Positions 231 through 30,944 of a DNA stretch of 32,000 bases are shown here, piece after piece. The stretch lies in NCBI RefSeq assembly GCF_003010495.1, contig NZ_CP027570.1, forward strand, positions 2,250,001-2,282,000. The letters are read 5' to 3'. A model generated the notes under the pieces. It did no database searches and had not been told where the DNA came from. It saw nothing but the letters and a program-made list of their open reading frames with translations. How positions within the stretch are numbered: the stretch's first letter is position 1; each line of letters starts with the position of its first letter. A program made the translations under genes and the position numbers. The DNA comes from Megasphaera elsdenii DSM 20460 (GTDB taxonomy: Bacteria > Bacillota > Negativicutes > Veillonellales > Megasphaeraceae).

Positions 231-1928
231 ATGAATGGTGTTGTTTTAGTCACCTGTGCTATCGTCATCTTGGCGGTAGCCTATCGGTTCTACGGCAAGT
301 GGCTGGCCAAGACGTGGGGCATCGATCCCAACGCCCTGACGCCGGCTCATCGCCTGGAAGACGGTCAGGATTATACGCCGTCTTCGAAATTCACGGTTTT
401 TGCCAATCAGTTCTCGTCCATTACCGGTGCCGGCCCTGTCACGGGTCCGATCATCGCCGCTGCGTACGGCTGGCTGCCGGCCTTCTTATGGCTTATGATC
501 GGCGGCGTCTTCTTCGGCGCTGTCCAGGACTTTGCCGCTCTCTATGCGTCCATGAAGAATGACGGCAAATCTATGGGCGTCCTCATCGAAAAGTATATCG
601 GCACGACGGGCCGCCGCCTGTTCCTGCTCTTCTGCTGGGTCTTCAGCCTGCTGGTCATCGCCGCTTTCGGCGATATCGTCGCTACGACGTTCAACGGCTT
701 CGCCAAGGATGGTTCCATGGTCCTGCCCAATGCCGCTGCCGCTTCCATTTCCATGTTGTTCATCTTCGTCGCCATCGCTTTTGGCCTGTTCATCAAGAAG
801 TTCAACCCCAGCGAAAAAGTCCGCTTCGTCATTGCTATCGTCCTCTTGATCGCCATGCTCTACGTCGGCATCGACCTGCCGATTTATCTGGACCGCATGA
901 CCTGGCTGTACATCATCTTCGCTTACATCTTCTTTGCGTCCATCATGCCCATGTGGCTCTTGAAACAGCCGCGTGACTATATCAGCGCCTTCCTGCTGCT
1001 CATGATGATCGCCGGCGGTGTCATCGGCATCTTCATCGCTCAGCCGACGCTGAACATGCCGGCCTTCACGTCCTTCTCTGTCGGCGGCAAGGATTTGTTC
1101 CCGATCCTGTTCATCACCATCGCCTGCGGGGCTGTTTCCGGGTTCCACAGCCTCGTTTCGTCCGGTACGTCGTCGAAGACGCTGGATAAGGAACAGGATG
1201 CCGTCTTCGTCGGCTATGGTTCCATGTGCGTCGAATCGGTCTTAGGCGTCGTATCCCTGGTCATCGCCTGCGCCGCCGCTTCCAACGGCCACGTCGCTTC
1301 GGGTACGCCCTTCCAGATTTTCTCCGGCGCTGTCGCCGGCTTCTTCACCATGTTCGGCCTGTCCCAGACCGCCGCTGCCTGCATCATGACCATGTGCGTT
1401 TCCGCCCTGGCCCTGACGACCCTCGATGCCGTCGGCCGTATCGGCCGTATGTCCTTCCAGGAACTCTTCAGCGTCGATGAAGGACAGGAAATGACGACAA
1501 TCCAGAAAATCTGCGTCAACAAATATTTCGCCACGGTCATCACGCTCTTCTTCGGCTTCCTGCTCTGCCTCGGCGGCTACATGAACATCTGGCCGCTCTT
1601 CGGCTCGGCCAACCAGCTGCTCTCGGCCATGGTCCTCATCTGCCTGACGGTCTTCCTCAAGACGACAGGCCGCAAGAGCTTCATGCTCTACGTCCCGATG
1701 GTCGTCATGTTCTGCGTCACCATGACGGCTCTCGTCGAATCGGCTTACGCCCTGATCATTAAGATCGCTTCGGGCAACTGGTCGCTCCTCATCGAAGGCC
1801 TGCAGTTCGTCCTGGCCATTGCTCTCATGGTCCTGGCTGTCTCCATCGTCTACCACTGCGGCAAAGAACTCATCCACGCCGACGATAAGACGGCACACCA
1901 AGACGCCCAGCCGACGGCTACGCATTGA
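231..1928 (+). CDS. cstA: carbon starvation protein A family transporter (CstA)
   Basis: 565-aa polytopic membrane ORF. N-terminus AVAYRFYGKWLAKTWGIDP and the SGFHSLVSSGTSSK motif are typical of CstA. AGGAGG at 218-223 lies 7 nt before the ATG. Confidence 0.9.
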   Translation: MNGVVLVTCAIVILAVAYRFYGKWLAKTWGIDPNALTPAHRLEDGQDYTPSSKFTVFANQFSSITGAGPVTGPIIAAAYGWLPAFLWLMIGGVFFGAVQDFAALYASMKNDGKSMGVLIEKYIGTTGRRLFLLFCWVFSLLVIAAFGDIVATTFNGFAKDGSMVLPNAAAASISMLFIFVAIAFGLFIKKFNPSEKVRFVIAIVLLIAMLYVGIDLPIYLDRMTWLYIIFAYIFFASIMPMWLLKQPRDYISAFLLLMMIAGGVIGIFIAQPTLNMPAFTSFSVGGKDLFPILFITIACGAVSGFHSLVSSGTSSKTLDKEQDAVFVGYGSMCVESVLGVVSLVIACAAASNGHVASGTPFQIFSGAVAGFFTMFGLSQTAAACIMTMCVSALALTTLDAVGRIGRMSFQELFSVDEGQEMTTIQKICVNKYFATVITLFFGFLLCLGGYMNIWPLFGSANQLLSAMVLICLTVFLKTTGRKSFMLYVPMVVMFCVTMTALVESAYALIIKIASGNWSLLIEGLQFVLAIALMVLAVSIVYHCGKELIHADDKTAHQDAQPTATH

Positions 1929-1930
1929 GA

Positions 1931-2039
1931 GTGTCAGCAGCTAGCAGTTAGCAGTTCGTAGGGGACGCCCAAAGGGCGTCCCGCAGAGTGCAGTTAGCTA
2001 TCAGCCATTAGCAGTTAGACACTAACGGCTAACCCCTAA
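1931..2039 (+). repeat. heptad-periodic arrays (CAGTTAG-type words) flanking a GC hairpin in the cstA 3' UTR
   Basis: gtgtCAG cagcTAG cagtTAG cagtTCG TAG at 1931-1961. Hairpin GGGGACGCCC-AAA-GGGCGTCCC at 1961-1982. Eight in-register heptamers at 1984-2039: cagagtg cagtTAG ctatCAG ccatTAG cagtTAG acacTAA cggcTAA ccccTAA. Confidence 0.7.
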
Positions 2040-2470: not shown

Positions 2471-2505
2471 GCGCCATCTGCATGTATCAGGTGGCGCTTT
2501 TCTTT
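2471..2505 (+). terminator. riboswitch expression-platform terminator
   Basis: GCGCCATCTG (2471-2480) pairs with CAGGTGGCGC (2488-2497), 10 bp including one G-U. Followed by TTTTCTTTT. Confidence 0.85.
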
Positions 2506-2526
2506 TGCCAAGAAGGAGCTGAGTAT

Positions 2527-3459
2527 ATGGAGCATGTGGCAAAGTATTTGACTGAACTAATCGGCAACACGCCGCTTTTGGAACTGACTCATTGGCAGGC
2601 CCGGCACGGCCTCAAGGCCCGGGTCCTGGCCAAGCTGGAGTACATGAATCCCTTGGGCAGCGTCAAGGACCGCGTCGCAGCGGCGATGATTGAAGAGGGG
2701 ATTCGTCAGGGGAAAATCGATCAGGATACGGTCATCATCGAACCGACCAGCGGCAATACGGGCATCGGCCTGGCCTTGGTCGCCGCCGTGAAGGGGCTGC
2801 ACCTGATCTTGACTATGCCTGACACGATGAGCCTGGAACGGCGCAAGATCGTGTCGGCCCTGGGGGCAGAAATCGTGCTGACACCGGGCATCGAGGGGAT
2901 GCGCGGCAGCATCGGCAAAGCCGAAGAATTGAGGGATTCTTACGGCAATGCCTTCATTCCCCAGCAGTTCGACAATCCGGCCAATCCGGCCATCCATCGG
3001 CAGACGACGGCTGAAGAAATCTGGCGCGATACGGACGGAAAGGTAGACATCTTCATTTCTTCCGTCGGCACGGGCGGCACCATCACCGGTACAGCCCAGG
3101 GCCTGAAAGGCCATAAGCCGGACGTCCAGATCGTCGCTGTCGAACCGAAAGATTCGGCTGTCCTGCACGGCGGCCGGCCGGGACCGCACGCCATTCAGGG
3201 GATTGGCGCCGGGTTCATCCCGAAAGTATTGGATATGTCTCTCGTAGATGATGTGATCGACGTATCCAATGAAGATGCTTACGGCCGGGCCAGGGAAGTG
3301 GCCAAGACGGACGGCCTCCTGGTCGGTATTTCTTCCGGCGCGTCGCTGCAGGCGGCACTGGAACTGGCCAGCCGGCCGGAAAATGAAGGCAAGACCATCG
3401 TCGTCCTCCTGCCGGACGGCGGCGAACGCTACTTATCGACGGCTTTATTCGAGGGGTAA
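2527..3459 (+). CDS. cysK: cysteine synthase A / O-acetylserine sulfhydrylase
   Basis: [23 protein letters not shown] (PLP lysine motif) and [18 protein letters not shown] at 2513-2518 lies 8 nt before ATG 2527. The longer ORF start at 2482 would lie inside the terminator. Confidence 0.92.
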
Positions 3460-3497
3460 AGAAATAAAGATACAGCCGGTATAGAGGGGGAAAGAAC

Positions 3498-4544
3498 ATG
3501 AAGAAAAAACATATCATAGCTATACTGGCTTTCACAGCGGTATTAGCCGCCGCGGGGGCATTGGCTGGCTGCGGGCGCAGCGATACAGCCGATGGCGGCG
3601 GCACGATGACCCTGACCAATGTCTCGTATGATCCGACCCGTGAGTTATATAAAGAATATAATGAATTGTTCCAGAAACACTATCGGGAGACCACCGGCAA
3701 GGACATCCGCATCATCCAGTCCCACGGCGGATCGGGCAGTCAGGCCCGGTCGGTCATCGAAGGGAGCCGGGCTGATGTCGTGACCCTGGCCCTGGCCCAC
3801 GATATATCGCTCATCGAAAGAGCCGGTCTCATCCATGAAGGCTGGCAAAGCGATTTCGCCAACGATTCGGCGCCGTACACGTCGACCATCGTCTTCCTGG
3901 TCCGCAAGGGGAACCCGAAAGGGATACGCGACTGGGATGACCTGGTAAAGCCCGGGGTCAGCGTCATTACGCCGGACCCGAAGAGCAGCGGCGGTGCCTG
4001 CTGGAACTTCCTGGCCGCCTGGAGCTGGGGCCTTGACCATTTCGGGGGGAATGAGATCAAGACCCGTGCCTTCATGACCGACTTGTACCGCAACGTCACG
4101 GTCATGGATTCCGGCGCCCGCGGCTCGACGACGACCTTTGTCGAAAACGGACAAGGCGACGTCCTTATCGCCTGGGAAAACGAAGCGCTTTATTCGATGC
4201 GCGAATATCCCGACAAGTTCGAACTCGTCGTGCCCAGCATCAGCATCATGGCCCAGCCCAGCGTGGCTGTCGTCGACCGCCTGGCCCGGCGCAAGGGCCA
4301 CGAAGAAGCGGCCCGCCAATACTTGCAGTACCTTTATTCCGATGAGGCCCAGGAATTGGCGGCTAAGAACGGGTTCCGGCCGTCCAATCCGGACATCCTT
4401 CAGCGCTATGCCGACCGCTTCGACTTGCATGTCAAATTGACCAAGATCAGCGATTTCGGCGGCTGGGAGGCTGCGTATGTCAAATTTTTCAACGACGATG
4501 CCTTGTTCGACAAGATCATGGCCGATGTCAACGGCAACGAATAG
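3498..4544 (+). CDS. sbp: sulfate/thiosulfate ABC transporter substrate-binding lipoprotein
   Basis: Signal peptide with lipobox ALAGC. Sbp/CysP-like motifs (SHGGSGSQARSVIEG, ITPDPKSSGGA, AWENEA). Sits directly upstream of cysT, cysW and cysA. Confidence 0.88.
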   Translation: MKKKHIIAILAFTAVLAAAGALAGCGRSDTADGGGTMTLTNVSYDPTRELYKEYNELFQKHYRETTGKDIRIIQSHGGSGSQARSVIEGSRADVVTLALAHDISLIERAGLIHEGWQSDFANDSAPYTSTIVFLVRKGNPKGIRDWDDLVKPGVSVITPDPKSSGGACWNFLAAWSWGLDHFGGNEIKTRAFMTDLYRNVTVMDSGARGSTTTFVENGQGDVLIAWENEALYSMREYPDKFELVVPSISIMAQPSVAVVDRLARRKGHEEAARQYLQYLYSDEAQELAAKNGFRPSNPDILQRYADRFDLHVKLTKISDFGGWEAAYVKFFNDDALFDKIMADVNGNE

Positions 4545-4556
4545 GAGGGGAGCCGG

Positions 4557-5402
4557 ATGAAACACTTTTTTGCCCGTTCTGGCGGGCGCAATCAGATTAT
4601 TCCCGGCTTCGGCCTGACCATGGGCATGAGCATCACTATGCTGTCCCTGCTCATCCTCATCCCGCTGGCGTCAGTCCTGGCCCATTCACTGCAACTGACG
4701 GCCAATGACTATGCCAAGCTCATCACCAACAGCGGTATCCGCAACGCCTTCATCACCAGCATTTCCTGTTCCGTCCTGGCGGCGCTGGTGAACTGCGTCT
4801 TCGGCTTTATCCTGGCCTGGGTCCTGGTACGCTATGAGTTCACGGGCAAGCGCCTCCTGAACGGCGTCATCGAACTGCCCTTCGCCTTGCCGACGGCCGT
4901 CGCCGGCATCACCTTGTCCAAACTCTATTCCGATACGGGCTTCTTCGGCAGTTTCTTTGCCAGCTACGGCATACAGATTGCCTATACCAAGATCGGCCTG
5001 ACCATCGCCATGGTCTTCGTCGGGATTCCCTTCGTCGTCCGGTCCATCCAGCCGGTCCTGGAAAAGCTCGACCCGACGTATGAAGAAGCGGGCAGCATGC
5101 TCGGCGCATCGCCGTTCACCATTTTCCGGCGCATCATTTTCCCGGAACTGCGGCCGGCTTTGCTGACAGGCTTTGGCCTAGCCTTTGCCCGGGGTCTCGG
5201 CGAATATGGCAGCGTCATCTATATTTCCGGCAACAGTGCCAAGCATCACACCCAGGTCGTTTCCTACGTCATCATGCAGAAGCTCAATTACGTCGATTAC
5301 GCCAGCGCTACGGCCATTGCCTTGGCCATGCTGGTCATCGCCTTTGTCACCTTGTTTTCTATCAATATGATCCAGGTCCATCAGGCCCGGCGCGTCCAGT
5401 AG
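4557..5402 (+). CDS. cysT: sulfate ABC transporter permease CysT
   Basis: 281-aa multi-TM ORF with the ABC permease EAA-type loop (YEEAGSMLGASPFTIFRRIIFPELRPAL). GGAGGGGAG RBS. Confidence 0.88.
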   Translation: MKHFFARSGGRNQIIPGFGLTMGMSITMLSLLILIPLASVLAHSLQLTANDYAKLITNSGIRNAFITSISCSVLAALVNCVFGFILAWVLVRYEFTGKRLLNGVIELPFALPTAVAGITLSKLYSDTGFFGSFFASYGIQIAYTKIGLTIAMVFVGIPFVVRSIQPVLEKLDPTYEEAGSMLGASPFTIFRRIIFPELRPALLTGFGLAFARGLGEYGSVIYISGNSAKHHTQVVSYVIMQKLNYVDYASATAIALAMLVIAFVTLFSINMIQVHQARRVQ

Positions 5403-5417
5403 AGGAGGGGAGCCATT

Positions 5418-6248
5418 ATGAAACACAGCAAGCTGGAAATCGCCTTGCTCACAATCAGCGTCGTCTTCGTCGTGGTCATGCTCATCGTCCCCCTGGTGTC
5501 GGTCCTGGTCAATTCGCTGGCCGAAGGTTGGGAGTTCTACATCCAGGCCCTGACGACGCCGTACGTCCTGTCGGCCCTGCGCCTGACCTTGCTGGCTACG
5601 GTCGTCGCCGTCATCGTCAATACAATCTTTGGCCTCGGCGCGGCCTGGGCTATTTCCAAATTCGACTTCCGGGGCAAGCACTTCTTGACGACACTCATCG
5701 ATATCCCTTTTTCCATTTCGCCGGTCATCGCCGGCCTGGCCTTCATCATGACTTTCGGCCGCATGGGCTGGATCGGCCAGTGGATCGAAGTCCTCAACGA
5801 CTATTGGGGGACGGATATCCAGATTGTCTTCGCCATTCCCGGCGTCATCTTGGCGACGATTTTCGTCACCTTTCCCTTCGTCTTCCGGGAAATCATCCCC
5901 GTCCTCAGCACCAATGGGCGCGACGAAGAGGAAGCGGCAGCCCTCATGGGCGCCAGCGGCTGGACGATTTTCTTCCGCATCACCCTGCCGCAGATCAAAT
6001 GGGCCCTGCTCTACGGCATCGTCCTCTGTACAGCCCGGGCCCTCGGCGAATTTGGGGCCGTCAGCGCCTTGTCCAAACTGCGCGGCGAGACCTTTACGCT
6101 GCCCCTGGAAATCGACGCCCTCTATCAGTCAGGGTCAGCCGATGCCATTACGGCGGCCTTCGCCGTATCATCTCTGTTAGTACTCTTAGCCATTATCGTC
6201 CTGCTCCTTCGGACCTTCCTCGAAGCCAAGGCCGATAAGTCATCGTAA
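5418..6248 (+). CDS. cysW: sulfate ABC transporter permease CysW
   Basis: 276-aa multi-TM paralogue of cysT with an EAA loop (EEAAALMGASGWTIFFRITLPQIKWAL). GAGGAGGGGAG RBS. Confidence 0.88.
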   Translation: MKHSKLEIALLTISVVFVVVMLIVPLVSVLVNSLAEGWEFYIQALTTPYVLSALRLTLLATVVAVIVNTIFGLGAAWAISKFDFRGKHFLTTLIDIPFSISPVIAGLAFIMTFGRMGWIGQWIEVLNDYWGTDIQIVFAIPGVILATIFVTFPFVFREIIPVLSTNGRDEEEAAALMGASGWTIFFRITLPQIKWALLYGIVLCTARALGEFGAVSALSKLRGETFTLPLEIDALYQSGSADAITAAFAVSSLLVLLAIIVLLLRTFLEAKADKSS

Positions 6249-6262
6249 AGGAGGTGAAGCTC

Positions 6263-7324
6263 ATGTATGTCGAAATGAAACACATCGAAAAGAATTACGG
6301 CTCCTTCCATGCGTCGCGCGACGTTTCCTTTGGCATCGACAAGGGCAAGCTCGTCGCCCTCCTCGGTCCCAGCGGCAGCGGCAAGACGACGATTCTGCGC
6401 ATGCTGGCCGGCCTGGAGAATCCCAACAGCGGCGACATCTTCATCGACGGCCGCCGGGTCAACGACATTCCCGCTGCCAAGCGGGGCATCGGCTTCGTCT
6501 TCCAGAACTACGCCTTGTTCCGCTATATGACCGTTTTCGATAACGTCGCCTTCGGCCTGGAGATACAGAAGCGGCCGAAAGATGAGATACGCCGCCGCGT
6601 CCTGGAAATGATCGACCTCGTCGGCCTTTCCGGCATGGAAAAGCGCTATCCCAACCAGCTCTCCGGCGGTCAGCGCCAGCGCGTGGCCTTTGCCCGGGCT
6701 CTGGCACCGAATCCCCAGGTCCTGCTCCTGGATGAGCCCTTTGCCGCCATCGACGCCAAGGTCCGCCAGGAACTGCGCAACTGGCTGAAGGATACGATCC
6801 ACCGCGTCGGCATTACCAGCATCTTCGTCACCCACGACCAGGATGAAGCCGTCGAAGTGGCCGATGAAATCATCATCACCAACCACGGCCGTATCGAACA
6901 GGTTGGCACACCGCTGGACATATACCGCCAGCCGCAGACACCTTTTGTAGCTCAATTTATCGGAACTCCGGTTGTCATCAATAACTGCAACATCCTCACA
7001 GGGTTTCTCAGCATCGGACAAGGAAAACAAGCCATTGTCCGGCCGGAATTTCTCAAGATCTATAAATACGGTACAATGAAGCAGTATATCAGTGCCGCCG
7101 AAGAAGGGACCGTCGAAGCCGTCGTCTTCCGGGGCAGCCATCTCGACGTGACCGTCCGCATCAAGGGCCTGGCCGTCCATGGAGAATATTCTTTCGACGA
7201 CCCGCCTTTGAATGTCGGAGAGACCGTCCAGGTCCTGATTTACCGCTTGTATGTCCTCGACGGCGACAAGACGTATTTGAAAGAAAACAGCGCCATGACT
7301 TCGGCCGACGTTTTCTATATTTAA
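6263..7324 (+). CDS. cysA: sulfate ABC transporter ATP-binding protein CysA
   Basis: Walker A GPSGSGKTT, signature LSGGQRQRVA, Walker B LLLDEP. AAGGAGG at 6248-6254 lies 8 nt before ATG 6263. The ORF-track start at 6254 is a GTG inside the RBS. Confidence 0.9.
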   Translation: MYVEMKHIEKNYGSFHASRDVSFGIDKGKLVALLGPSGSGKTTILRMLAGLENPNSGDIFIDGRRVNDIPAAKRGIGFVFQNYALFRYMTVFDNVAFGLEIQKRPKDEIRRRVLEMIDLVGLSGMEKRYPNQLSGGQRQRVAFARALAPNPQVLLLDEPFAAIDAKVRQELRNWLKDTIHRVGITSIFVTHDQDEAVEVADEIIITNHGRIEQVGTPLDIYRQPQTPFVAQFIGTPVVINNCNILTGFLSIGQGKQAIVRPEFLKIYKYGTMKQYISAAEEGTVEAVVFRGSHLDVTVRIKGLAVHGEYSFDDPPLNVGETVQVLIYRLYVLDGDKTYLKENSAMTSADVFYI

Positions 7325-7340
7325 TGAAGGAGTTTATGCT

Positions 7341-9038
7341 ATGCAGATTACCAGTGAGAAGCTCATCCATACGGATGTCCTCATCATCGGCGGCGGGACG
7401 GCCGGCTGTTATGCCGCTTTGACCCTCCGCAGCCTGTCTGACGCCTCGGTGGTCATCGCCGAAAAGGCCGATATCCGCCGCAGCGGCTGTCTGGCAGCCG
7501 GCGTCAACGCCTTGAATGCCTATATCACCAAGGGCCATACGCCGCAGTTCTACGTCGACTACGCCAAGAAAGACGCAGCCGGCATCGTCCGGGAAGACTT
7601 GCTCCTGACCATGTCCGAAGGCCTCAACGAAGTCACGAAGAAGCTGGAAGACCTGGGGCTGGTCATCTTGAAGGATGAACAGGGCGAATACGTCGCCCGC
7701 GGGACGCGCAACATCAAGATCAACGGCGAGAACATCAAGACCATCCTGGCCGACGCCGTCAAGAAACTCGATGATGTCCAAGTCATCAACCACTTGAACA
7801 TCACTGACTATATCGTCCGCGATGACACCATCGCCGGAGCCTTGGGCTTTGATATCCGCACGGGTACAGCCTATGAAATCCGGGCCAAAGCTGTCCTCTG
7901 TGCGACTGGCGGCGCTGCCGGCCTATATCGGCCCAACAATCCCGGCTTTTCCCGGCACAAGATGTGGTACTGTCCTTTCAATACGGGTGCTGGTTACGCC
8001 ATGGGCATCCGGGCCGGCGCCGAAATGACGACTTTTGAAATGCGATTCATCGCCCTGCGCTGCAAGGATACCATTGCACCGACCGGGACCATTGCCCAGG
8101 GCGTCGGTGCCAGGCAGATCAATGCCCGCGGCGAAGTGTACGAACAGAAATATGGCCTGACCACCTCTCAGCGGCTCTATGGCACGGTCCGGGAAACGCT
8201 GGACGGCAACGGTCCGTGTTATCTCGGCACAGAAGGCATTACGCCAGCCCAGGATGAATCGCTCCTCAAGGCCTATCTCAACATGGCACCGAGCCAGACC
8301 TTGAAATGGATCGAATCGGGCAAGCTGCCGAGCCAGCAGAACGTCGAAATCGAAGGGACTGAGCCCTATGTCGTCGGCGGCCATACGGCCAGCGGCTACT
8401 GGGTCGACACGAACCGCCAGACGACGATCCGCCACCTCTATGCAGCAGGTGACGTTGCCGGTGGCTGCCCGCAGAAATACGTCACCGGTGCCCTGGTCGA
8501 AGGGGAAATCGCCGCCAAAGACATGGTCCGCCAGGGCCTGACCGATGCGACGGGCCTCGATGAAGCCCAGGAAAAGGCCATCCTCGCCGAAAAAGTGGCT
8601 GAATACAACGCCGCCCTCGGCGAAAGGGACAGTTTCTTCACGGTCGAACAGCTGGAAGAAGCCATGCAGAAGGTCATGGACACCTATGCCGGCGGCATCG
8701 GCAGTCATTACCAGTACAACGAGAAGCAGCTCGACCTGGCCGATGAAAAGATCGACCAGCTCATGGAACTGGCAGCCCACGTCGGCGCCAGCGACTACCA
8801 TGAACTGCTCTTCGTCTACGAACTGCGCGAACGGCTGACGGTCTGCAAGGTCCTCATCGCCCATCTCCGGGCCCGCAAGGAAACGCGGTGGCATTCCTTT
8901 GCAGAAAACCTCGATTACCCGGAACAAAGCGATGACTGGCTGAAATACGTCAACTCCCGCTTGGGCGAAGACGGCCAGGTCCACATGATTTACCGCGATT
9001 TAGTACCAGGAGGGGACGTTTATGAGCATACGCATTAA
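7341..9038 (+). CDS. aprA: AprA-like FAD flavoprotein, putative assimilatory adenylylsulfate (APS) reductase alpha subunit
   Basis: N-terminal FAD fold DVLIIGGGTAGCYAA. Fumarate-reductase/AprA-type flavoprotein length (565 aa). Lies between cysA and cysD and is followed by an overlapping small ferredoxin. The function is inferred from context. Confidence 0.7.
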   Translation: MQITSEKLIHTDVLIIGGGTAGCYAALTLRSLSDASVVIAEKADIRRSGCLAAGVNALNAYITKGHTPQFYVDYAKKDAAGIVREDLLLTMSEGLNEVTKKLEDLGLVILKDEQGEYVARGTRNIKINGENIKTILADAVKKLDDVQVINHLNITDYIVRDDTIAGALGFDIRTGTAYEIRAKAVLCATGGAAGLYRPNNPGFSRHKMWYCPFNTGAGYAMGIRAGAEMTTFEMRFIALRCKDTIAPTGTIAQGVGARQINARGEVYEQKYGLTTSQRLYGTVRETLDGNGPCYLGTEGITPAQDESLLKAYLNMAPSQTLKWIESGKLPSQQNVEIEGTEPYVVGGHTASGYWVDTNRQTTIRHLYAAGDVAGGCPQKYVTGALVEGEIAAKDMVRQGLTDATGLDEAQEKAILAEKVAEYNAALGERDSFFTVEQLEEAMQKVMDTYAGGIGSHYQYNEKQLDLADEKIDQLMELAAHVGASDYHELLFVYELRERLTVCKVLIAHLRARKETRWHSFAENLDYPEQSDDWLKYVNSRLGEDGQVHMIYRDLVPGGDVYEHTH

Positions 9039-9336
9039 TCAGGAACGATGCATCGGCTGTGGCCAGTGCATCGACGTCTGCCCGGGCAGCCTCATCGACC
9101 GCAACGACCAGGGCAAGGCGTGGATGCATTATCCCAAGGACTGTTGGGGCTGTGTGTCCTGCGTCAAGGAATGTCCGGTCCAGGCCATCGACTTCTACCT
9201 CGGCGCCGACATGGGTGGCCGGGGCAGCACGATGAACGTCACGGCGGACGGCCATTACCTGCATTGGCATATCCATCAGGCCGACGGGACGGAAAAGACC
9301 ATCACTGTCGACCGAAAACAGGCAAATTCGTATTGA
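9022..9336 (+). CDS. aprB: AprB-like 2x[4Fe-4S] ferredoxin subunit
   Basis: CIGCGQCIDVCP and CWGCVSCVKECP cluster motifs. Overlaps aprA by 17 nt. GGAGGGG RBS at 9010-9016. Confidence 0.65.
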   Translation: MSIRINQERCIGCGQCIDVCPGSLIDRNDQGKAWMHYPKDCWGCVSCVKECPVQAIDFYLGADMGGRGSTMNVTADGHYLHWHIHQADGTEKTITVDRKQANSY

Positions 9337-9374
9337 GTCTGATAGGGAAAACGCCAGTATTCAGTATATTTCTT

Positions 9375-9456
9375 ATTTGTCGTTTGATGTTTGACGTTTG
9401 AAGTTTGACGCATAGACGCACATCAAACATCATACATCAAACATCACACATCAAAA
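9375..9456. repeat. inverted arrays of TGA-containing heptamers forming a long imperfect hairpin (aprB-cysD junction)
   Basis: Left arm atttgtc gtttgat gtttgac gtttgaa gtttgac at 9375-9409. Core GCATAGACGCA. Right arm catcaaa catcata catcaaa catcaca catcaaa at 9421-9455. The arms are about 80% complementary and no T-run follows. Confidence 0.7.
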
Positions 9457-9474
9457 CATAGGGGGATTCATATT

Positions 9475-10374
9475 ATGTGTGCATTATCGCATCTCGACAA
9501 GTTAGAGGCCGAAGCGATTTACATCATCCGCGAAGTTGCCGCGGAATGTGAAAAGCCGGTCATGCTCTATTCTATCGGCAAGGACAGTTCTGTCATGCTT
9601 CACCTGGCCCTCAAGGCCTTTTATCCGGAAAAGCCGCCTTTCCCGTTCCTCCATGTCAATACGACGTGGAAGTTCAAAGAAATGATCCGCTTCCGCGATG
9701 AAACCATGAAGAAATATGGTCTGCAGCTCATTGAATACATCAATCAGGAAGGGGTCAAACAGGGCGTCAATCCCTTTGACTATGGCGCAGCCTATACGGA
9801 TATCATGAAGACCCAGGCCCTCAAGCAGGCGCTCAACAAATACGGCTTCACCGCTGCTTTTGGCGGTGGCCGCCGGGACGAAGAAAAATCCCGCGCCAAA
9901 GAACGTATCTTTTCCTTCCGCAATGAAGCCCAGGCCTGGGACCCGAAGAACCAGCGCCCGGAAATGTGGAAGCTCTACAATACGCACATCCATAAAGGCG
10001 AAAGCATGCGCGTATTCCCGATTTCCAACTGGACGGAAAAAGATATCTGGCAGTATATCAAACGGGAAAACATCGACATCGTGTCCTTGTATTTCGCCAA
10101 AGAACGGCCCTGCGTCTATCGCGATGGCAACATCATCATGGTCGACGACGACCGCATGCGCCTCAAGCCGGGAGAAGAAATCATGCACAAGAAGATCCGC
10201 TTCCGTACTTTGGGATGCTATCCTTTGACAGGGGGCATCGAATCCGATGCCGATACGCTGGATGCCATCATCGATGAAACACTGAGCGCCGTCTCGTCGG
10301 AACGGACGAGCCGCGTCATCGATAATGAAGCAGCCGGCAGCATGGAACGCAGAAAGAGAGAGGGGTATTTCTAA
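9475..10374 (+). CDS. cysD: sulfate adenylyltransferase subunit 2
   Basis: [19 protein letters not shown]-reductase/ATP-sulfurylase fold motif [14 protein letters not shown], and C-terminal [10 protein letters not shown], as in CysD. Confidence 0.92.
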
Positions 10375-10375
10375 A

Positions 10376-12070
10376 ATGGATAGAAACGGAAACGGCTTGT
10401 TAAAATTTATTACCTGCGGCAGCGTCGACGACGGCAAATCGACACTCATCGGGCATCTGCTCTATGATGCCAAATTGCTTTATGCCGACCAGAAGAAAGC
10501 ACTGGAACTGGAAAGCAAAGTCGGCAGCCGCGGCGGCGCCATCGACTATTCGCTCCTCCTGGATGGCCTCATGGCCGAACGGGAACAGGGCATCACCATC
10601 GACGTCGCCTATCGCTATTTCAGCACGGATAACCGCAGCTTCATCGTCGCCGACACACCGGGCCATGAAGAATATACTCGCAACATGGCTGTCGGCGCTT
10701 CCTTTGCCGACTTGGCCATTATCCTCATCGACGCCACCAAGGGCGTCCTGGTCCAGACCCGCCGCCATGCCCGCATCTGCGCCCTCATGGGGATCCGCTA
10801 TTTCATCTTCGCCATCAATAAGATGGACCTGGCCGACTACAGCCAGGAACGCTTTGAAGAAATCAAGGGACAGATCGCCAAGCTCCGCGACGAATTAGAA
10901 CTGGCCAACGTCGTCCTCATTCCTGTTTCGGCGACGGAAGGGGACAACGTCACCAAGGCTTCGACCAATATGCCTTGGTACCAGGGACCGACGATTCTCG
11001 ATTATTTGGAAACGGTCAACGTTGAAGAAGACAAAGAAGAAGGCTTCTACCTGCCCATCCAGCGCGTCTGCCGCCCGAATCATACTTTCCGCGGTTTCCA
11101 GGGCCAGATTGAAAGTGGGTCCTTAGCTGTTGGCGATACGATTACAACGTTGCCCAGCAAAGAAGAAGCTAAGGTCAAATCCATCCTCATCGGCTTCGAT
11201 ACCGTCGAGTCGGCCGTCAAAGGCCAGCCGGTCAACGTCCAGCTCGACCGCGAAGTCGACGTATCCCGGGGCTGTGTCTTCACCAAGGGAACGGACGTCG
11301 CCCTGAGCCAGCGCATTACGGCGACCATGCTCTGGATGGATGACCAGGACCTGGCTGTCGGCAAGGAATATGTCGTCAAATTGGGGACGAAAGAAATCGT
11401 CGGCGTCCTCAGCGACATCGATTACACCATCGACGTCAATACAGGGGAAAAGAAGCGCGCTTCGAGCCTTACGAAGAACGAAATCGCCGTCTGCACGCTC
11501 TTCCTGCAGGAACCGATTGTCGTCGATACTTTCAGCCATCACAAGGTCCTGGGCGAACTCATCCTCATCGACCGCGTCACCAACATGACTTCGGCTTGCG
11601 GCGTCGTCATCGACGTCAACGATACCAACGCCGACCACACCTTCGTCCATGGCTCCTTGAAGGCCCGCGGCGATGTCTTTGAAGATTTCTTCTACGGTAT
11701 GCAGAGTCTCAATATCACCAAGGCTAAACCGGCCTTCCACCAGTACCACATCGGTGATACCATCCCGACCAAGGGCGAAACCTACGCATATCCGGATAAC
11801 TTCGATATCCTTATCCTCCGCGACAAGATTGCCGTCGAAATCCGCGACGCTAAAGTGGCTAACATCCTGTCCCTTGATGGCTATGCCTATACGGAACAGC
11901 CCCTGGTCAATGGCCGCGGTTTTGCCATTAACGTTCACTCGCCACAGGAATTCGCTGCTTTTAAAGCGGATTATACCAAGGCCGGGGAAAATTCCGATGC
12001 CGAACTTTTCGACAAATGGATGACCTTTGAAACATATCGCAAGATTAAATTCCACAACGATTTTGAATAA
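10376..12070 (+). CDS. cysN: sulfate adenylyltransferase subunit 1 (GTPase) with a ~150-aa uncharacterised C-terminal extension
   Basis: LLKFITCGSVDDGKSTLIGHLLYD (G1), DTPGHEEY (G3), NKMD (G4). ATG 10376 lies 1 nt after the cysD stop. No APS-kinase P-loop is seen in the tail. Confidence 0.9.
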   Translation: MDRNGNGLLKFITCGSVDDGKSTLIGHLLYDAKLLYADQKKALELESKVGSRGGAIDYSLLLDGLMAEREQGITIDVAYRYFSTDNRSFIVADTPGHEEYTRNMAVGASFADLAIILIDATKGVLVQTRRHARICALMGIRYFIFAINKMDLADYSQERFEEIKGQIAKLRDELELANVVLIPVSATEGDNVTKASTNMPWYQGPTILDYLETVNVEEDKEEGFYLPIQRVCRPNHTFRGFQGQIESGSLAVGDTITTLPSKEEAKVKSILIGFDTVESAVKGQPVNVQLDREVDVSRGCVFTKGTDVALSQRITATMLWMDDQDLAVGKEYVVKLGTKEIVGVLSDIDYTIDVNTGEKKRASSLTKNEIAVCTLFLQEPIVVDTFSHHKVLGELILIDRVTNMTSACGVVIDVNDTNADHTFVHGSLKARGDVFEDFFYGMQSLNITKAKPAFHQYHIGDTIPTKGETYAYPDNFDILILRDKIAVEIRDAKVANILSLDGYAYTEQPLVNGRGFAINVHSPQEFAAFKADYTKAGENSDAELFDKWMTFETYRKIKFHNDFE

Positions 12071-15757: not shown

Positions 15758-16525
15758 ATGTACAACGACGAATACGCAGCTTCTGCAGCCGGTGCGGCCG
15801 CCAAGGTCGGCCTGCTGAAGAAGAACCCCTTAGGCTATTTCCTCATGTCGGCTTTAGCCGGCGCCTACATCGGCTTCGGTATCCTCCTGTCCTTTACCGT
15901 CAGCGGTACCCTCGGTGCTATTCCTATGACGAAGATCGCCATGGGCCTGTCCTTTGGCATCGCCTTGAGTCTGGTCGTCATCGCCGGGGCAGAACTGTTC
16001 ACGGGCAATGCCTTCGTCCTCTACAACGGCTGGCGTTCGAAGACGGTCACTTTGACGGACGTCGTCCGCCTGTGGGTCGTCTGCTACCTGGGCAACTGGT
16101 TCGGCGCCATCGTCTTGTCCCTGATTTTCTACGGTGCTGCCGGCACGGCTGGCGGCACCGGTCAGGCCCTGGCCAATGCCGCTGCCATGAAGATGAGCCT
16201 GCCGCCGCTGGTACTCTTCCTCAAAGGCATCCTCTGTAACGTCCTGGTCTGCCTGGCCGTCTGGTGCGGCTTCCGCTGTAAATCGGACAGCGGCAAACTG
16301 ATCATGGTCTTCTGGTGCCTCTACGCCTTCTTTACCTGTGGCTTTGAACACAGCGTAGCCAACATGACCGTCCTGACCCTGGGCCTGCTGAATCCCGCCG
16401 GCACGGCCGTCAGCGTCGGCGGTTATCTCTACAACCTGGCCTTTGTCACCTTGGGCAACATCGTCGGTGCCATCCTCTTCTTGTCCATTCCCTACGGCAT
16501 TGCAGCGAAGAAGATTGGTGATTAG
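15758..16525 (+). CDS. formate/nitrite transporter (FNT) family channel, probable hydrosulfide channel
   Basis: 255-aa six-TM FNT-like ORF (AGAELFTGN, FEHSVANM). Lies 10 nt after asrC with a GGGAGGAG RBS. Confidence 0.85.
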   Translation: MYNDEYAASAAGAAAKVGLLKKNPLGYFLMSALAGAYIGFGILLSFTVSGTLGAIPMTKIAMGLSFGIALSLVVIAGAELFTGNAFVLYNGWRSKTVTLTDVVRLWVVCYLGNWFGAIVLSLIFYGAAGTAGGTGQALANAAAMKMSLPPLVLFLKGILCNVLVCLAVWCGFRCKSDSGKLIMVFWCLYAFFTCGFEHSVANMTVLTLGLLNPAGTAVSVGGYLYNLAFVTLGNIVGAILFLSIPYGIAAKKIGD

Positions 16526-16553
16526 TGGCTCGTGGCTAGTGGTTCGTGGCTCT
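16519..16553 (+). repeat. heptad array TGATTAG TGGCTCG TGGCTAG TGGTTCG TGGCTCT in register with the FNT stop codon
   Basis: Five exact 7-nt units. The TAG of the first unit (16523-16525) is the gene's stop codon. The same words recur at 30257-30291 and on the minus strand at 30376-30417. Confidence 0.75.
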
Positions 16554-16620
16554 CCTTATAGGAGAGCTGTCAGCGAAGCTGACTGAGAGGTTGCTCTTTC
16601 TTTATAGTAGTCCGTGAGTT

Positions 16621-16697
16621 GTAGGGGCACACGTGGGATGCCCGTCAGGAATGATAGGACATATCCCGGAGCGGGCTCGCCACGTGCGAGCCCCTAC
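16621..16697. other. 77-nt extended stem-loop in the 3' UTR
   Basis: GTAGGGGC (16621-16628) pairs with GCCCCTAC (16690-16697). CACGTGG (16630-16636) pairs with CCACGTG (16680-16686). Preceded by hairpins at 16550-16566 and 16569-16583. Confidence 0.55.
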
Positions 16698-27975: not shown

Positions 27976-28120
27976 GTCTATGAAGAATTAATAATACATT
28001 AGGGCTTATTGCGCCAAAACAGGCCATGGAAAAACAGTTGAAGGCTTATGACAAAGAACTACGAAATAAGGATGGCGGTAACTGATGATTGCTTTTTCGA
28101 GAGCTTTTTGTGAATTTTTA

Positions 28121-28188
28121 AGCGGCTTTTTAGCGGCTTTAGGTTTTCAGCAAGTTTTTTGCCGACTTTTTTGCCGATATTTTGCCGA
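28121..28188. repeat. phased 11-12-bp short direct repeats (iteron-like)
   Basis: AGCGGCTTT at 28121 and 28132 (period 11). TTTTGCCGA at 28157, 28169 and 28180 (periods 12 and 11). No ORF. Confidence 0.5.
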
Positions 28189-28423
28189 TTTTGATATGAA
28201 AAACGAGGAAATTTGGCAGTTATTGAGAAAAAGTGAAAGTGGTATTACTTGTTAAATAAATGGCTTAGTTATGCTGGATAGAAAGTGTTACAATATGCAC
28301 CTCCATTCTCATTTAAAATAACTTACGATAATTTAACGTTATCGGAAGTAATAATACTTCTAACTCCACCCCGTACTGCTAATGACTATAAAATCACTAT
28401 ATTTCTAGTAATTCACTATCATT

Positions 28424-28897: not shown

Positions 28898-30256
28898 ATG
28901 CAGCGATTTTTGTCTTACGAAAATACGATTTTAGCTGTCGTCATGATGGTGTCTTTTATCAACCCTTTTACCAGCAGCGCTTTGACGACGGCTTTGCCTG
29001 GGATTGGTACGGCTTATGGTGCGACGGATGCCCAGCTCAGTTGGGTCATTGAGTTGTTCTTGATTTCTTCGACGGTGACGATTATGCCAATCAGCAAGAT
29101 TGCCGACCGGATTGGCAAGCGTCATGTCTTCTTGTTTGGTGTATCCTTATTCTGTGTCTCGTCACTGGCTGTGTATTTTGTGACTTCCCTCTATGGCTTA
29201 TTTTTACTGCGCATCTTGCAAGGCCTGGGCAGTGCCAGTATTTTTGCCACCAGCATGGCCATCGTCTCCCTGGTCACCCCGCCGGAACGTCGCGGCCGGG
29301 CTATGGGCTTTACCATTGCCGCTGTGTATTGCGGGCTGTCCTTTGGTCCGGTTCTGGGCGGTTTCTTTTCTTATTACCTGGGCTGGAAGACAATTTTTTA
29401 TTTTATCGCCATTATCTGTGCCGTGGCCTGGCTGATTGCCCTGTATAGCATGAAAAAAGAAGAATGGATTGTCAATTCCCATGGCAGTCTGGATTTGTTT
29501 GGTAGCCTCTTATATGCCCTGGCTATGATTGCCATTATGGTTGGCTTATCGGAAGTAACGAGTCTTTTCTATGCTAAATATCTCTTGGCCGCCGGCTTCA
29601 TCCTGTTCCTGGTGTTCTTGTATGGTGAATGGCACCAGAAAAGCCCGGTCCTGCCCGTCCGTATTTTTGCCGACAATCGCGTGTTTTCCTGTTCCAGTTT
29701 GGCAGCTATGCTCAACTATTGTGCAACTTTTGGCATCAGTTTCCTCTTGTCCATTTATTTGCAGCGCATTACCGGCCTCAATGCCCGTGACACGGGACTC
29801 GTCCTATTGCTCCAACCGGTGCTGATGGCGCTCTTGTCCCCTGTCACCGGAGCGCTGTCGGACCGTATCAATCCCGCCGTCCTGGCTTCTTCCGGTATGA
29901 TTTTGATTACCTTCGGTCTCTCCTGTCTGGCAATCAATGTCTCTCTTTCTTCCTTCTGGCTCATTGCCCTGGCCCTGGTCATCATCGGCATCGGTTTTGC
30001 CCTGTTCACGGCGCCGAATAATAACGCGATTATGGGATCCGTGGCACCCAAATATTATGGGGCTGCTTCATCGGTCGTCAGTACGGTCCGCCTCATCGGC
30101 CAGGTCCTCAGCGTGGCCATCATCACCTTGATTTTGTCGCAAAGCGGCGCCGCGGCTGCATCGGACTGGTTGGCCCATCATATTCAGCAAGCCTTCATTG
30201 TTTTCACGATTCTCTGTGCCATTGGTATTGTCCCTTCAGCAGCACGGAGTAAGTGA
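28898..30256 (+). CDS. MFS transporter, 14-TM DHA2 (EmrB/QacA-like) type
   Basis: About 452 aa, multi-TM, with MFS motif-A-like ADRIGKRHVF and LQGLGSA. GGAGG at 28884-28888 lies 9 nt before ATG 28898. The ORF-track start at 28829 is a TTG inside the -35 box. Confidence 0.85.
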   Translation: MQRFLSYENTILAVVMMVSFINPFTSSALTTALPGIGTAYGATDAQLSWVIELFLISSTVTIMPISKIADRIGKRHVFLFGVSLFCVSSLAVYFVTSLYGLFLLRILQGLGSASIFATSMAIVSLVTPPERRGRAMGFTIAAVYCGLSFGPVLGGFFSYYLGWKTIFYFIAIICAVAWLIALYSMKKEEWIVNSHGSLDLFGSLLYALAMIAIMVGLSEVTSLFYAKYLLAAGFILFLVFLYGEWHQKSPVLPVRIFADNRVFSCSSLAAMLNYCATFGISFLLSIYLQRITGLNARDTGLVLLLQPVLMALLSPVTGALSDRINPAVLASSGMILITFGLSCLAINVSLSSFWLIALALVIIGIGFALFTAPNNNAIMGSVAPKYYGAASSVVSTVRLIGQVLSVAIITLILSQSGAAAASDWLAHHIQQAFIVFTILCAIGIVPSAARSK

Positions 30257-30291
30257 TGATTCGTGGTTAGTAGTTAGTGATTAGTGGTTCG
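30250..30291 (+). repeat. heptad array TAAGTGA TGATTCG TGGTTAG TAGTTAG TGATTAG TGGTTCG in register with the MFS stop codon
   Basis: Six exact 7-nt units. The TGA of unit 1 (30254-30256) is the stop codon, and unit 2 starts with a second in-frame TGA. The array runs straight into the terminator stem. Confidence 0.75.
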
Positions 30292-30292
30292 C

Positions 30293-30342
30293 AAAAGAGG
30301 ATGCTGCATTAAGCCAAAAACGCTAATGCAACATCCTCTTTT
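30293..30342. terminator. bidirectional intrinsic terminator between convergent genes
   Basis: AAAA then AGAGGATGCTGCATTA (30296-30311) paired with TAATGCAACATCCTCT (30324-30339), 15 of 16 bp, then TTTT. Confidence 0.8.
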
Positions 30343-30372
30343 CAAAAAGCGTATGAAATTAAATTTATGTAT

Positions 30373-30417
30373 TTACGAGCCACGAGCCATTAACCACGAG
30401 CCACTAACAACTATTTC
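30373..30417 (-). repeat. minus-strand heptad array GAAATAG TTGTTAG TGGCTCG TGGTTAA TGGCTCG TGGCTCG TAA in register with the stop codon of the 30411-30944 gene
   Basis: Read on the minus strand from 30417 down to 30373. The TAG of unit 1 (complement of 30411-30413) is the gene's stop. Same word family as 16519-16553. Confidence 0.75.
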
Positions 30418-30944
30418 ACAAAATAATGGGCCGAGTCATCGACGAGGCTGTTTTCCAGGAGGGCTTTGAACTGCGGGGCACTCATTCCGGCTGCCTGGGC
30501 AGAGAACTGATAGTCTCCCACTTTCCAATGAGCGACGTAGGACGTGTCGTTGATTTTAGCGATGCTGACGGGAACGCCGTCGATGACCTGGTCTTTCCAG
30601 GTTACGCTATAGACGCCGGAAATATCTTTCATCGATTTATCGGCTTTCTGGGGCATCGTGCGGACGCGGACCGTCGTTTCCGGTTGGCCTAAGCGCTGGA
30701 AGCCGATGTCCGCAGTGTGTTTGCCGATTAAAGAGAGGTAATAACAGCTGAAGCCGGCGTCGCGGGTCAAATACAGCGGTGTAAAGCCGGCATCTTTTAC
30801 GACATTTTCATAGGTATCGTAGATCACAATAGGATTAGGTATGCCGATCGGCTGGACTTTCGGCGTACTGGCTGCGAAAGAAGTACTGCCAATCATCAAC
30901 GTGGCACAGGCTACTAAGAGAGAGTTTTTTACAATGTGTTTCAA
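30411..30944 (-). CDS. hypothetical secreted protein
   Basis: 177 aa with a signal peptide (MKHIVKNSLLVACATLMIGSTSFAAS). No family recognised. Confidence 0.6.
   Translation of the reverse strand: MKHIVKNSLLVACATLMIGSTSFAASTPKVQPIGIPNPIVIYDTYENVVKDAGFTPLYLTRDAGFSCYYLSLIGKHTADIGFQRLGQPETTVRVRTMPQKADKSMKDISGVYSVTWKDQVIDGVPVSIAKINDTSYVAHWKVGDYQFSAQAAGMSAPQFKALLENSLVDDSAHYFVK

Follow-up and report, generated by a model that had tools for sequence, protein, structure and literature searches.

A Terminator-Like Hairpin between Two Inverted Heptanucleotide Arrays at a Convergent Gene Pair of Megasphaera elsdenii

Introduction

In Megasphaera elsdenii DSM 20460, an MFS transporter gene and a gene for a 177-aa protein converge on a short intergenic region in which two mirror-image arrays of 7-nt units, each starting at a stop codon, enclose a hairpin. 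The region lies at 30257-30410 of a 32,000-nt stretch of contig NZ_CP027570.1 (positions 2,250,001 to 2,282,000 of the forward strand). This whole 32-kb stretch is referred to below as the window, and all coordinates are counted from its first letter. The question raised by the locus is whether such an arrangement should be regarded as one element, mobile or regulatory, or as several parts of different origin. The original prediction, made from the letters of the DNA alone, favored a single symmetrical unit of 154 nt, carrying its own terminator and belonging to no described class, with an insulator built for the convergent genes as the alternative.

The comparison of strains, lineages and phyla presented here leads to a different answer. 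The intergenic region is probably a composite of three independent parts (the terminator, the MFS-side array and the second array) and not one element. As part of this reading, the central hairpin is likely to be a bidirectional intrinsic terminator, predicted from its structure, that is old, specific to this locus and serves both converging genes. The locus itself belongs to an already known class of heptanucleotide repeats, since multiple unit copies, occurrence at many loci and length polymorphism in whole units are all found.

Structure of the Intergenic Region

The coordinates of the features discussed in this work are collected in Table 1. The MFS gene, called as 452 aa in ten strains, ends with TGA at 30254-30256, and a second in-frame TGA (30257-30259) follows directly. 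The units of the MFS-side array read TGATTCG TGGTTAG TAGTTAG TGATTAG TGGTTCG and occupy the entire gap between the stop codon and the terminator. On the other side, the 177-aa gene ends with TAG, the reverse complement of 30411-30413, after which the minus strand reads TTGTTAG TGGCTCG TGGTTAA TGGCTCG TGGCTCG from 30410 to 30376, with a TAA next, to 30373. HE576794.1, the M. elsdenii DSM 20460 chromosome, encodes exactly this 177-aa protein, as do numerous contigs from gut and rumen.

Table 1. Positions of the convergent genes, the intergenic features and the other heptad arrays of the window.
Feature	Coordinates	Strand	Description
MFS transporter gene	28898..30256	+	452 aa from ATG 28898; Pfam MFS_1, E = 4.6e-54
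MFS-side heptad array	30257..30291	+, sense to MFS gene	5 units
Bidirectional intrinsic-terminator-like hairpin	30293..30342	both strands	repeat finding and folding
AT-rich spacer, 33 nt	30343..30375	no strand	one side of hairpin only
Array on 177-aa-gene side	30376..30410	-, sense to 177-aa gene	5 units
177-aa gene	30411..30944	-	signal-peptide-like N-terminus; no Pfam family
TGGCTCG-type array	16519..16552	+	TGATTAG TGGCTCG TGGCTAG TGGTTCG TGGCTC
TTAGCAG / GCAGTTA then CTAACGG / CTAACCC arrays	1934..2038	+	start 5 nt past CstA stop
Heptad-array hairpin	9376..9456	+	TTTGNNG x5, 8-nt loop, NACATCA x5; G/T-rich arm first

Tandem Repeats Finder detects period 7 at 30263-30289 (3.9 copies) and at 30375-30404 (4.3 copies), with 73-80% matches between the units of both arrays. 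The two arrays are mutually inverted and 76-82% complementary, with 76% for their 29-nt arms. A heptanucleotide repeat is defined by at least three head-to-tail copies of a 7-nt unit, and five are found on each side. The two inverted period-7 arrays starting at the stop codons, as originally described, are thus borne out by the sequence and by Tandem Repeats Finder. The same is true of the stops in all frames: read from the sequence, all three frames are closed within 31 nt on the plus strand and within 41 nt on the minus strand. Because stop codons stand in every frame at that position, the arrays are harmless to the neighboring coding sequence. The symmetry ascribed to the module is not a true one, because the AT-rich spacer (30343-30375) flanks the hairpin on one side only.

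The arms of the hairpin (30293-30311 and 30324-30342) comprise 19 nt each, with 18 of the 19 positions paired (95% complementary), and the pairing of 15/16 stated earlier for 30296-30339 is correct. An A-tract and a T-tract border a stem whose 15-bp arms contain one mismatch and enclose a loop of 12 nt, and the structure is the same on both strands. Flanked by AAAA and TTTT, it presents a G+C-containing stem and a T-tract on either strand, as intrinsic terminators require, and therefore looks like the bidirectional terminator that had been proposed. A simple terminator scan of the window, with a loop limit of 8 nt, overlooked this hairpin because its loop exceeds that limit. A search of the whole window against Rfam at the gathering threshold returned only an S-adenosylmethionine (SAM) riboswitch elsewhere and nothing on the intergenic region; at an E-value threshold, the intergenic region gave generic hairpin matches only, far below the gathering score.

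Folding calculations give -29.1 kcal/mol for 30257-30350, a fold dominated by the hairpin. Folded alone, the arrays are unstructured (z = -0.84 on the MFS side and z = -0.91 on the 177-aa side). For the whole intergenic region, the two strands give -57 and -59 kcal/mol, with z = -6.7 and -6.6, respectively.

These parts can be combined into the following proposal. The MFS-side array would be a heptanucleotide simple-sequence array, G/T-rich on the sense strand of its gene, that fills the gap from the MFS stop to the terminator. The second array, of the same unit family and presumably younger, would abut the 177-aa stop on the other strand, again in sense orientation. Most likely, it would go back to a template switch around the hairpin that copied the first array in inverted form and extended the hairpin outward. 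Any function of the arrays would be passive. In normal transcripts, each array could keep the terminating ribosome apart from the terminator hairpin, as an unstructured spacer closed by stops in every frame. If transcription reads through from either side, the arrays are predicted to pair and so to lengthen the stem; the resulting duplex, at about -57 kcal/mol, could serve as a second barrier or as an RNA-processing site between the converging genes.

Evolution of the Locus across Strains and Lineages

Among ten M. elsdenii contigs or strains, the intergenic region is identical except for one single-nucleotide polymorphism (SNP). Across Megasphaera lineages, the MFS-side array comprises 3.5, 4, 5 or 6 units with many unit substitutions, and all lineages in which the neighboring protein is at least 71% identical have it in the gap that separates stop codon and terminator. 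In a lineage at 67% identity, the terminator directly follows the stop codon, and a related repeat with a 14-nt period lies beyond it. The TGGCTCG array beside the 177-aa gene occurs only in M. elsdenii and in the sister lineage at 89% identity; the other lineages carry TTTGNAG/CTACAAA heptads at this position instead, and in sister lineages the 177-aa gene stops at TAA, not TAG. Different unit families thus replace one another at one site.

The terminator has its own history. It is orthologous across the lineages, with compensatory changes in the stem (GAGGATGCTGCATTA vs GCGGCTGTCGCATTA). In the sister lineage at 89% identity (contigs L153 and L154, positions 1535-1629), the hairpin is deleted between GGATG and TATG while both inverted arrays are retained, and only these two arrays are left between the converging genes. 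The spacer at 30343-30375 may be related to the loop of the TTTGNAG/CTACAAA heptad hairpin of sister lineages, judging from a visual reading of the alignment.

The 42-nt core of the hairpin matches ten metagenome contigs, all ten at this MFS / 177-aa locus, and has no further copy elsewhere in the 32-kb window. In these contigs, the MFS-side array has 4-5 units and the array next to the 177-aa gene 2, 3 or 5; one contig also has a single-base deletion within a unit. In this material, the interior of the intergenic region is single-copy and invariant, and the arrays change length independently of each other, almost always by multiples of 7 nt, which points to slippage. In nearly all cases, an array gains, loses or changes sequence by complete 7-nt units, which is what slipped-strand mispairing predicts.

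Comparison with Chance Expectation

The self-similarity of the window was tested by period against shuffles. At a threshold of 16 matches in 21, period 7 yields five segments versus 0.0 expected in shuffles; 5-6 segments are found across thresholds, and at two stricter thresholds shuffles contain none. Period 6 is likewise above shuffles in the window (3 versus 0.1). Two consecutive TGGYTMG units, with at most two mismatches, are matched 12 times in the window versus 1.83 expected, a number reached in 0 of 100 shuffles. All 12 matches fall in three arrays, each beginning at a stop codon.

A chance pattern, or a by-product of base composition, could be suspected from the degeneracy of the single units, which agree at only 73-80% in Tandem Repeats Finder. 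This reading is ruled out by the shuffles, by the TGGYTMG counts and by the recurrence of the arrays at orthologous sites of other lineages, which together leave it a vanishingly small probability. The over-representation expected of the array words is confirmed in the window, and the repeat class is found genome-wide and across phyla.

Insertion of an IS110-Family Element into Arrays

In one metagenome contig, the MFS-side array is interrupted by a 1516-bp insertion sequence (IS) of the IS110 family (transposase P0045; L001, 3677-5197), with the junctions ...TCGTGGTTAG | IS | AGTAGTTAGTG. At an unrelated locus (L138-L142, about 1398-2914), an identical element lies within a TTAGCMG array; the junctions there are ...GCCGTTAG | IS | AGCAGTTAGTG. 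The dinucleotide AG (CT on the other strand) is present at both junctions of each insertion, and the target common to the two is GTTAG | (AG)YAGTTAGTG. Insertions of a related IS110 element from Mitsuokella (P0059) do not lie in heptads; consequently, the targeting of arrays is specific to the M. elsdenii element.

Other Heptad Arrays in the Window

Four array-bearing regions are present in the 32-kb window, all outside confirmed genes, and its period-7 arrays lie mostly just after stop codons. According to our own reading past each stop, four or five of roughly a dozen terminal genes carry an array. Further heptad arrays are found in other Megasphaera contigs, such as L045 and L083.

In the TGGCTCG-type array, the first unit provides the TAG stop of a formate/nitrite-transporter gene (15758-16525). 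Among M. elsdenii contigs with an identical protein (L315-L323), the copy number of this array is 1.9, 3.9, about 8 or 10.9; a 21-nt block is present three times in one allele, and another allele has a 17-nt duplication that includes the last codons of the gene. The array is followed at 16551-16590 by a structured motif of about 40 nt (CTCCTTATAGGAGAGCTGTCAGCGAAGCTGACTGAGAGG), which recurs in reversed orientation beside arrays in another Megasphaera species (L083, about 430-470).

The arrays after the CstA gene are divided by a small GGGACGCCC/GGGCGTCCC hairpin, and a terminator comes next at about 2039-2073. The first of them has three or four units (a difference of 7 nt), and one allele has an extra 14 nt. 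The entire array-hairpin-array block (about 107 nt; window positions 1926-2038) is present in six and absent in two of eight M. elsdenii contigs (L324-L331), and the two contigs that lack it use TAG, not TGA, as the stop. Alignment of the filled and empty alleles gave neither a clean junction nor a clean duplication.

The heptad-array hairpin is located between ferredoxin-like and PAPS (3'-phosphoadenosine 5'-phosphosulfate)-reductase-like genes of a sulfur-assimilation-like operon. The operon (2482-12070), which includes this hairpin and the PAPS-reductase-like gene, is preceded by the SAM riboswitch (RF00162, 82 bits) at 2351-2448 on the plus strand.

Two further kinds of repeats were observed. 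GTAGGGG...CCCCTAC palindromes (GTAGGGGC...GCCCCTAC) adjoin arrays at 1959-1985 and 16616-16697 of the window, at 398-488 and about 2928 of L083, and in L045; these palindromes of Megasphaera contigs may form a separate family resembling repetitive extragenic palindromic (REP) sequences. Upstream of the MFS gene, two tandem repeats with an 11-nt period are found at 28116-28140 (TTTTTAGCGGC) and 28155-28192 (TTTTTTGCCGA).

Distribution and Layout across Phyla

The wider occurrence of the arrays was examined by scanning a set with one genome per species for TGGYTMG x3; the figures given for this genome set apply among the matches listed. At least 120 stretches were found versus about 17 expected by our own calculation for uniform base composition. 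They belong to Planctomycetota, Chloroflexota, Acidobacteriota, Bacteroidota, Verrucomicrobiota-related groups, Proteobacteria, Firmicutes (including Megasphaera, Dialister and Selenomonadaceae) and several cyanobacteria (Stigonema, Scytonema, Tolypothrix, Cyanomargarita and Chamaesiphon). Viral contigs contain 101 TGGYTMG stretches versus 53 for a reversed-unit control, about half of the control stretches lying inside open reading frames. The intergenic arrays of the reversed control heptad GMTYGGT (L262-L314) likewise pair with the G-rich arm first, 6 versus 0. Among 250 arrays, TGGTTAG and TGGCTAG are the commonest units, and the number of units has a median of 5 and a maximum of 38.

Two layout rules emerge when the arrays are oriented as TGGYTMG. 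The first concerns how close the arrays lie to the upstream stop. Of 67 arrays with a same-strand gene on their 5' side, 53 are no more than 30 nt from its stop, whereas 13 of 58 are as close to an opposite-strand gene end (p = 1.5e-10). The median gap between array and stop is 8 nt in the genome set (5-8 nt across sets), and the viral-contig set reproduces the same-strand stop contact. The second rule concerns polarity. About a third of the arrays have an inverted partner within 250 nt, and this partner is always downstream: 35 versus 0 upstream in one count and 39 versus 0 in another, with about 64 distinct pairs. With heptads of any unit included, 72 cases show a G-rich first arm and 2 a C-rich one. 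The G-arm-first polarity also holds in cyanobacterial loci (10 versus 0), and of 64 other heptad arrays that adjoin gene ends, 51 have more G than C on the sense strand. Where a solitary array is C-rich in the direction of the flanking genes, it lies about 48 nt past the upstream stop and does not abut it.

The basic layout can therefore be described as stop codon, G-rich arm, center and C-rich arm, and the M. elsdenii module fits it as an instance with the terminator as the center. The mirror image at this locus would arise because arrays of the class are laid out in this way. In one Brevundimonas genome, two loci (L087, 3860-4046; L096, 171-400) have TGGCTAG pairs around interiors that share GGTCTGMGCCGCCCTTCCGC, so that in this genome the arrays flank a dispersed palindromic element.

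Several simple accounts of the layout were considered and rejected. Polarity is not a general property of hairpins, as ordinary hairpins in the same loci are split 35 versus 35. Nor is it a by-product of converging genes that each carry an array, given that 33 pairs lie between co-directional, 16 between converging and 10 between diverging genes. The pairs do not act as intrinsic terminators in general, for a T-run follows the C-rich arm in 3 of 63 pairs. G-quadruplex formation is not general either: the TTAGCAG and TTTGACG unit families have no G-runs. A Rho-loading pad on the C-rich, G-poor antisense arrays is attractive at this locus; it is not general, because the polarity also holds in cyanobacterial loci, and cyanobacteria are not known to have Rho.

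Candidate causes of the polarity and of the stop contact are an instability that starts where ribosomes leave nascent G-rich RNA, for example via R-loops, selection on the base composition of untranslated regions, and a factor that reads the repeat.

Weighing the Explanations

The alternative in which the module is a mobile miniature element, similar to a miniature inverted-repeat transposable element (MITE) or a REPIN (a REP doublet), interprets the arrays as terminal inverted repeats recognized by a transposase and the terminator as cargo inserted between the two stops. The arrays are indeed mutually inverted, and array pairs always share the head-to-head polarity that terminal inverted repeats would have (about 64 pairs versus 0). 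The presence of the CstA block in six contigs and its absence in two, as well as the 20-nt core common to the two Brevundimonas loci between their array pairs, also speak for mobility. However, the interior core occurs at this locus only (10 of 10 matches), the hairpin was lost by itself in one lineage, and the arrays are of different age and each varies alone in 7-nt units. At this locus they are 2-6 units long, with the two sides varying separately; over the wider set of arrays, lengths range from 3 to 38 units, which is unlike defined terminal repeats; about two-thirds of all arrays have no inverted partner. No direct repeat that could be a target-site duplication flanks 30257-30410 or the CstA-locus indel. 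No empty site was found at this locus among 10 strains, 10 metagenome contigs and 5 sister lineages, in which the changes are piecemeal. The defining tests of a MITE thus fail because the interior is single-copy in the contigs and window scanned, the arrays vary independently and there is no target-site duplication, and a mobile origin is very unlikely. The single 154-nt mobile unit is consequently abandoned, and the two checks suggested for it, empty sites in related strains and target-site duplications, both came out negative in the material compared. A dedicated cis-element, selected at the RNA or DNA level, would explain other features of the arrays. In one form, (UGGYUMG)n after the stop would offer a conserved factor binding sites at regular intervals; in another, it would be a polar signal controlling termination, ribosome release or reinitiation, or antisense read-through, for example a C-rich, G-poor tract shown to Rho on any transcript that leaves the intergenic region. 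The tight, orientation-specific contact with the stop (median gap of 5-8 nt), the strict polarity that ordinary hairpins of the same loci do not show, the excess of G on the sense strand at other gene ends, the occurrence of one unit family in very distant phyla and in viral contigs, and the position of the MFS-side array, held across Megasphaera lineages, are in line with such a role. On the other hand, unit sequence and copy number drift freely, unit families swap at the same site, and only about a third to half of the terminal genes of the window have an array. The cyanobacterial polarity (with the lack of Rho noted above) makes the Rho-based form not general, neither the minus-strand array nor the TGGCTCG units contain the HutP-type (UAG N4)x3 pattern, and no Rfam family matches the region. 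A dedicated cis-element is considered unlikely, although somewhat less so than a mobile unit.

The composite of terminator and two arrays remains the preferred explanation, but several points weigh against it. The template switch proposed for the second array is suggested only by the complementarity to the first array and by the younger age. The presence or absence of the whole block at the CstA locus is also compatible with a block gained or lost in one piece. The arrays are not hypervariable on short timescales, because ten strains are identical except for one SNP. Finally, neither the strict G-arm-first polarity nor the tight stop contact seen across phyla is expected from neutral slippage, and this hints at a directional mechanism or selection. 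A broader proposal takes up this last point: stop-abutting arrays with the G-rich arm at the 5' side would form a distinct class of 3'-end elements in many phyla and viral contigs, made or kept by a directional mechanism or a conserved factor, and would not be neutral microsatellites. For such a class, a process starting where translation stops and a protein or RNA reading UGGY/UAG every 7 nt are candidates. This proposal is rather doubtful and is put forward tentatively; if it is true, the M. elsdenii module would be a tractable example.

Implications

The module, as an ordinary predicted terminator with two microsatellite-like arrays, should not carry a mobile-element annotation. Its wider value lies in the layout rules, namely the contact with the upstream stop and the G-arm-first polarity, which has no exception in about 64 pairs. 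This directional rule narrows the possible mechanisms for tandem heptanucleotide repeats, which were described in cyanobacteria, reportedly in 1990. M. elsdenii is cultivable and offers natural length variants at several loci, which would make such mechanisms testable. On the practical side, the arrays are strain-typing markers, assembly hazards and insertion targets of an IS110-family element.

Comparison with Known Systems

Bidirectional intrinsic terminators between converging genes resemble the central hairpin in the A-tract, the G+C stem and the T-tract on both strands. This description covers 30293-30342 only and not the heptad arrays.

REP units measure about 35 nt, are palindromic, contain a GTAG motif and are mobilized by REP-associated tyrosine transposases (RAYT). 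Together with bacterial interspersed mosaic elements (BIME) and REPINs, they share with the M. elsdenii module an extragenic and palindromic nature, a frequent position between converging genes or after stops, and mosaics with other motifs. They differ in being palindromes, not tandem heptads, and the interior of the M. elsdenii module is single-copy. In some proteobacteria, REP sequences are targets of IS110-family elements, and the arrays appear to play an analogous role here. The likeness to REP stated in the original prediction thus holds in that an IS110-family element targets the arrays, but does not extend to one mobile unit, the interior being single-copy.

The HutP-binding site of the Bacillus hut operon is (UAG N4)x3; a HutP-type antiterminator site comprises two sets of three UAG triplets at 4-nt intervals and overlaps a terminator that precedes the regulated genes. 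It has the same period, TGGTTAG repeats give UAG every 7 nt, and the plus-strand array contains UAG triplets with this spacing. In contrast, a single UAG follows the stop in the minus-strand array, UAG is missing from TGGCTCG and TGGTTCG units, and the arrays are found well beyond the HutP-carrying taxa. Antitermination would also be pointless here because the arrays lie after the terminal gene. A HutP-like (UAG N4)n site was consequently rejected on account of the shortage of UAG in the minus-strand array and in TCG-type units and of the position after terminal genes.

The claim that no described class has this form cannot be upheld, as heptanucleotide arrays with the same period are described both in cyanobacteria and among the simple-sequence repeats of prokaryotes; a literature search on heptamer repeats of Megasphaera itself returned nothing relevant. 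The TAACTGA heptamer repeats of Beggiatoaceae, Cyanobacteria and Bacteroidetes are mostly placed just ahead of start codons, facing forward, and were proposed to take part in translation initiation (MacGregor 2015, PMC4679880). They are likewise intergenic heptamers with stops in three frames and a scattered distribution among phyla. Because of the stops in all frames, both the TAACTGA repeats and the M. elsdenii arrays overlap gene ends by a few units only; the latter differ in that they abut stop codons, often with an inverted partner. In Geobacter metallireducens, families of four or five tandem heptanucleotides were annotated as putative regulatory elements (PMC2700814), and a Nostoc preprint, which gives no mechanism, reports that heptamer repeats alter promoter reporters.

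In the account of Mrazek (2007) given in PMC4679880, heptanucleotide units are the most abundant class of long simple-sequence repeats in most prokaryote genomes, and polymerase slippage is proposed as the cause of long simple-sequence repeats. The M. elsdenii loci agree with this in that their length differences are almost all multiples of 7 nt. They differ in that the M. elsdenii units are imperfect copies and do not form pure repeats. No role in phase variation is apparent for the M. elsdenii arrays because they lie after stop codons.

Short tandemly repeated repetitive (STRR) heptanucleotide sequences of cyanobacteria were reportedly described by Mazel et al. in 1990. The usual hosts of STRR are heterocystous cyanobacteria and not a Negativicute, and the arrays here are short, with 2-6 units at the locus. 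Stop-codon contact and strict polarity are not known to be part of the STRR description. The likeness consists in tandem 7-nt intergenic units, many loci per genome and several unit families in one genome, and the cyanobacterial TGGYTMG arrays of the present scan have the same arm polarity as the M. elsdenii module.

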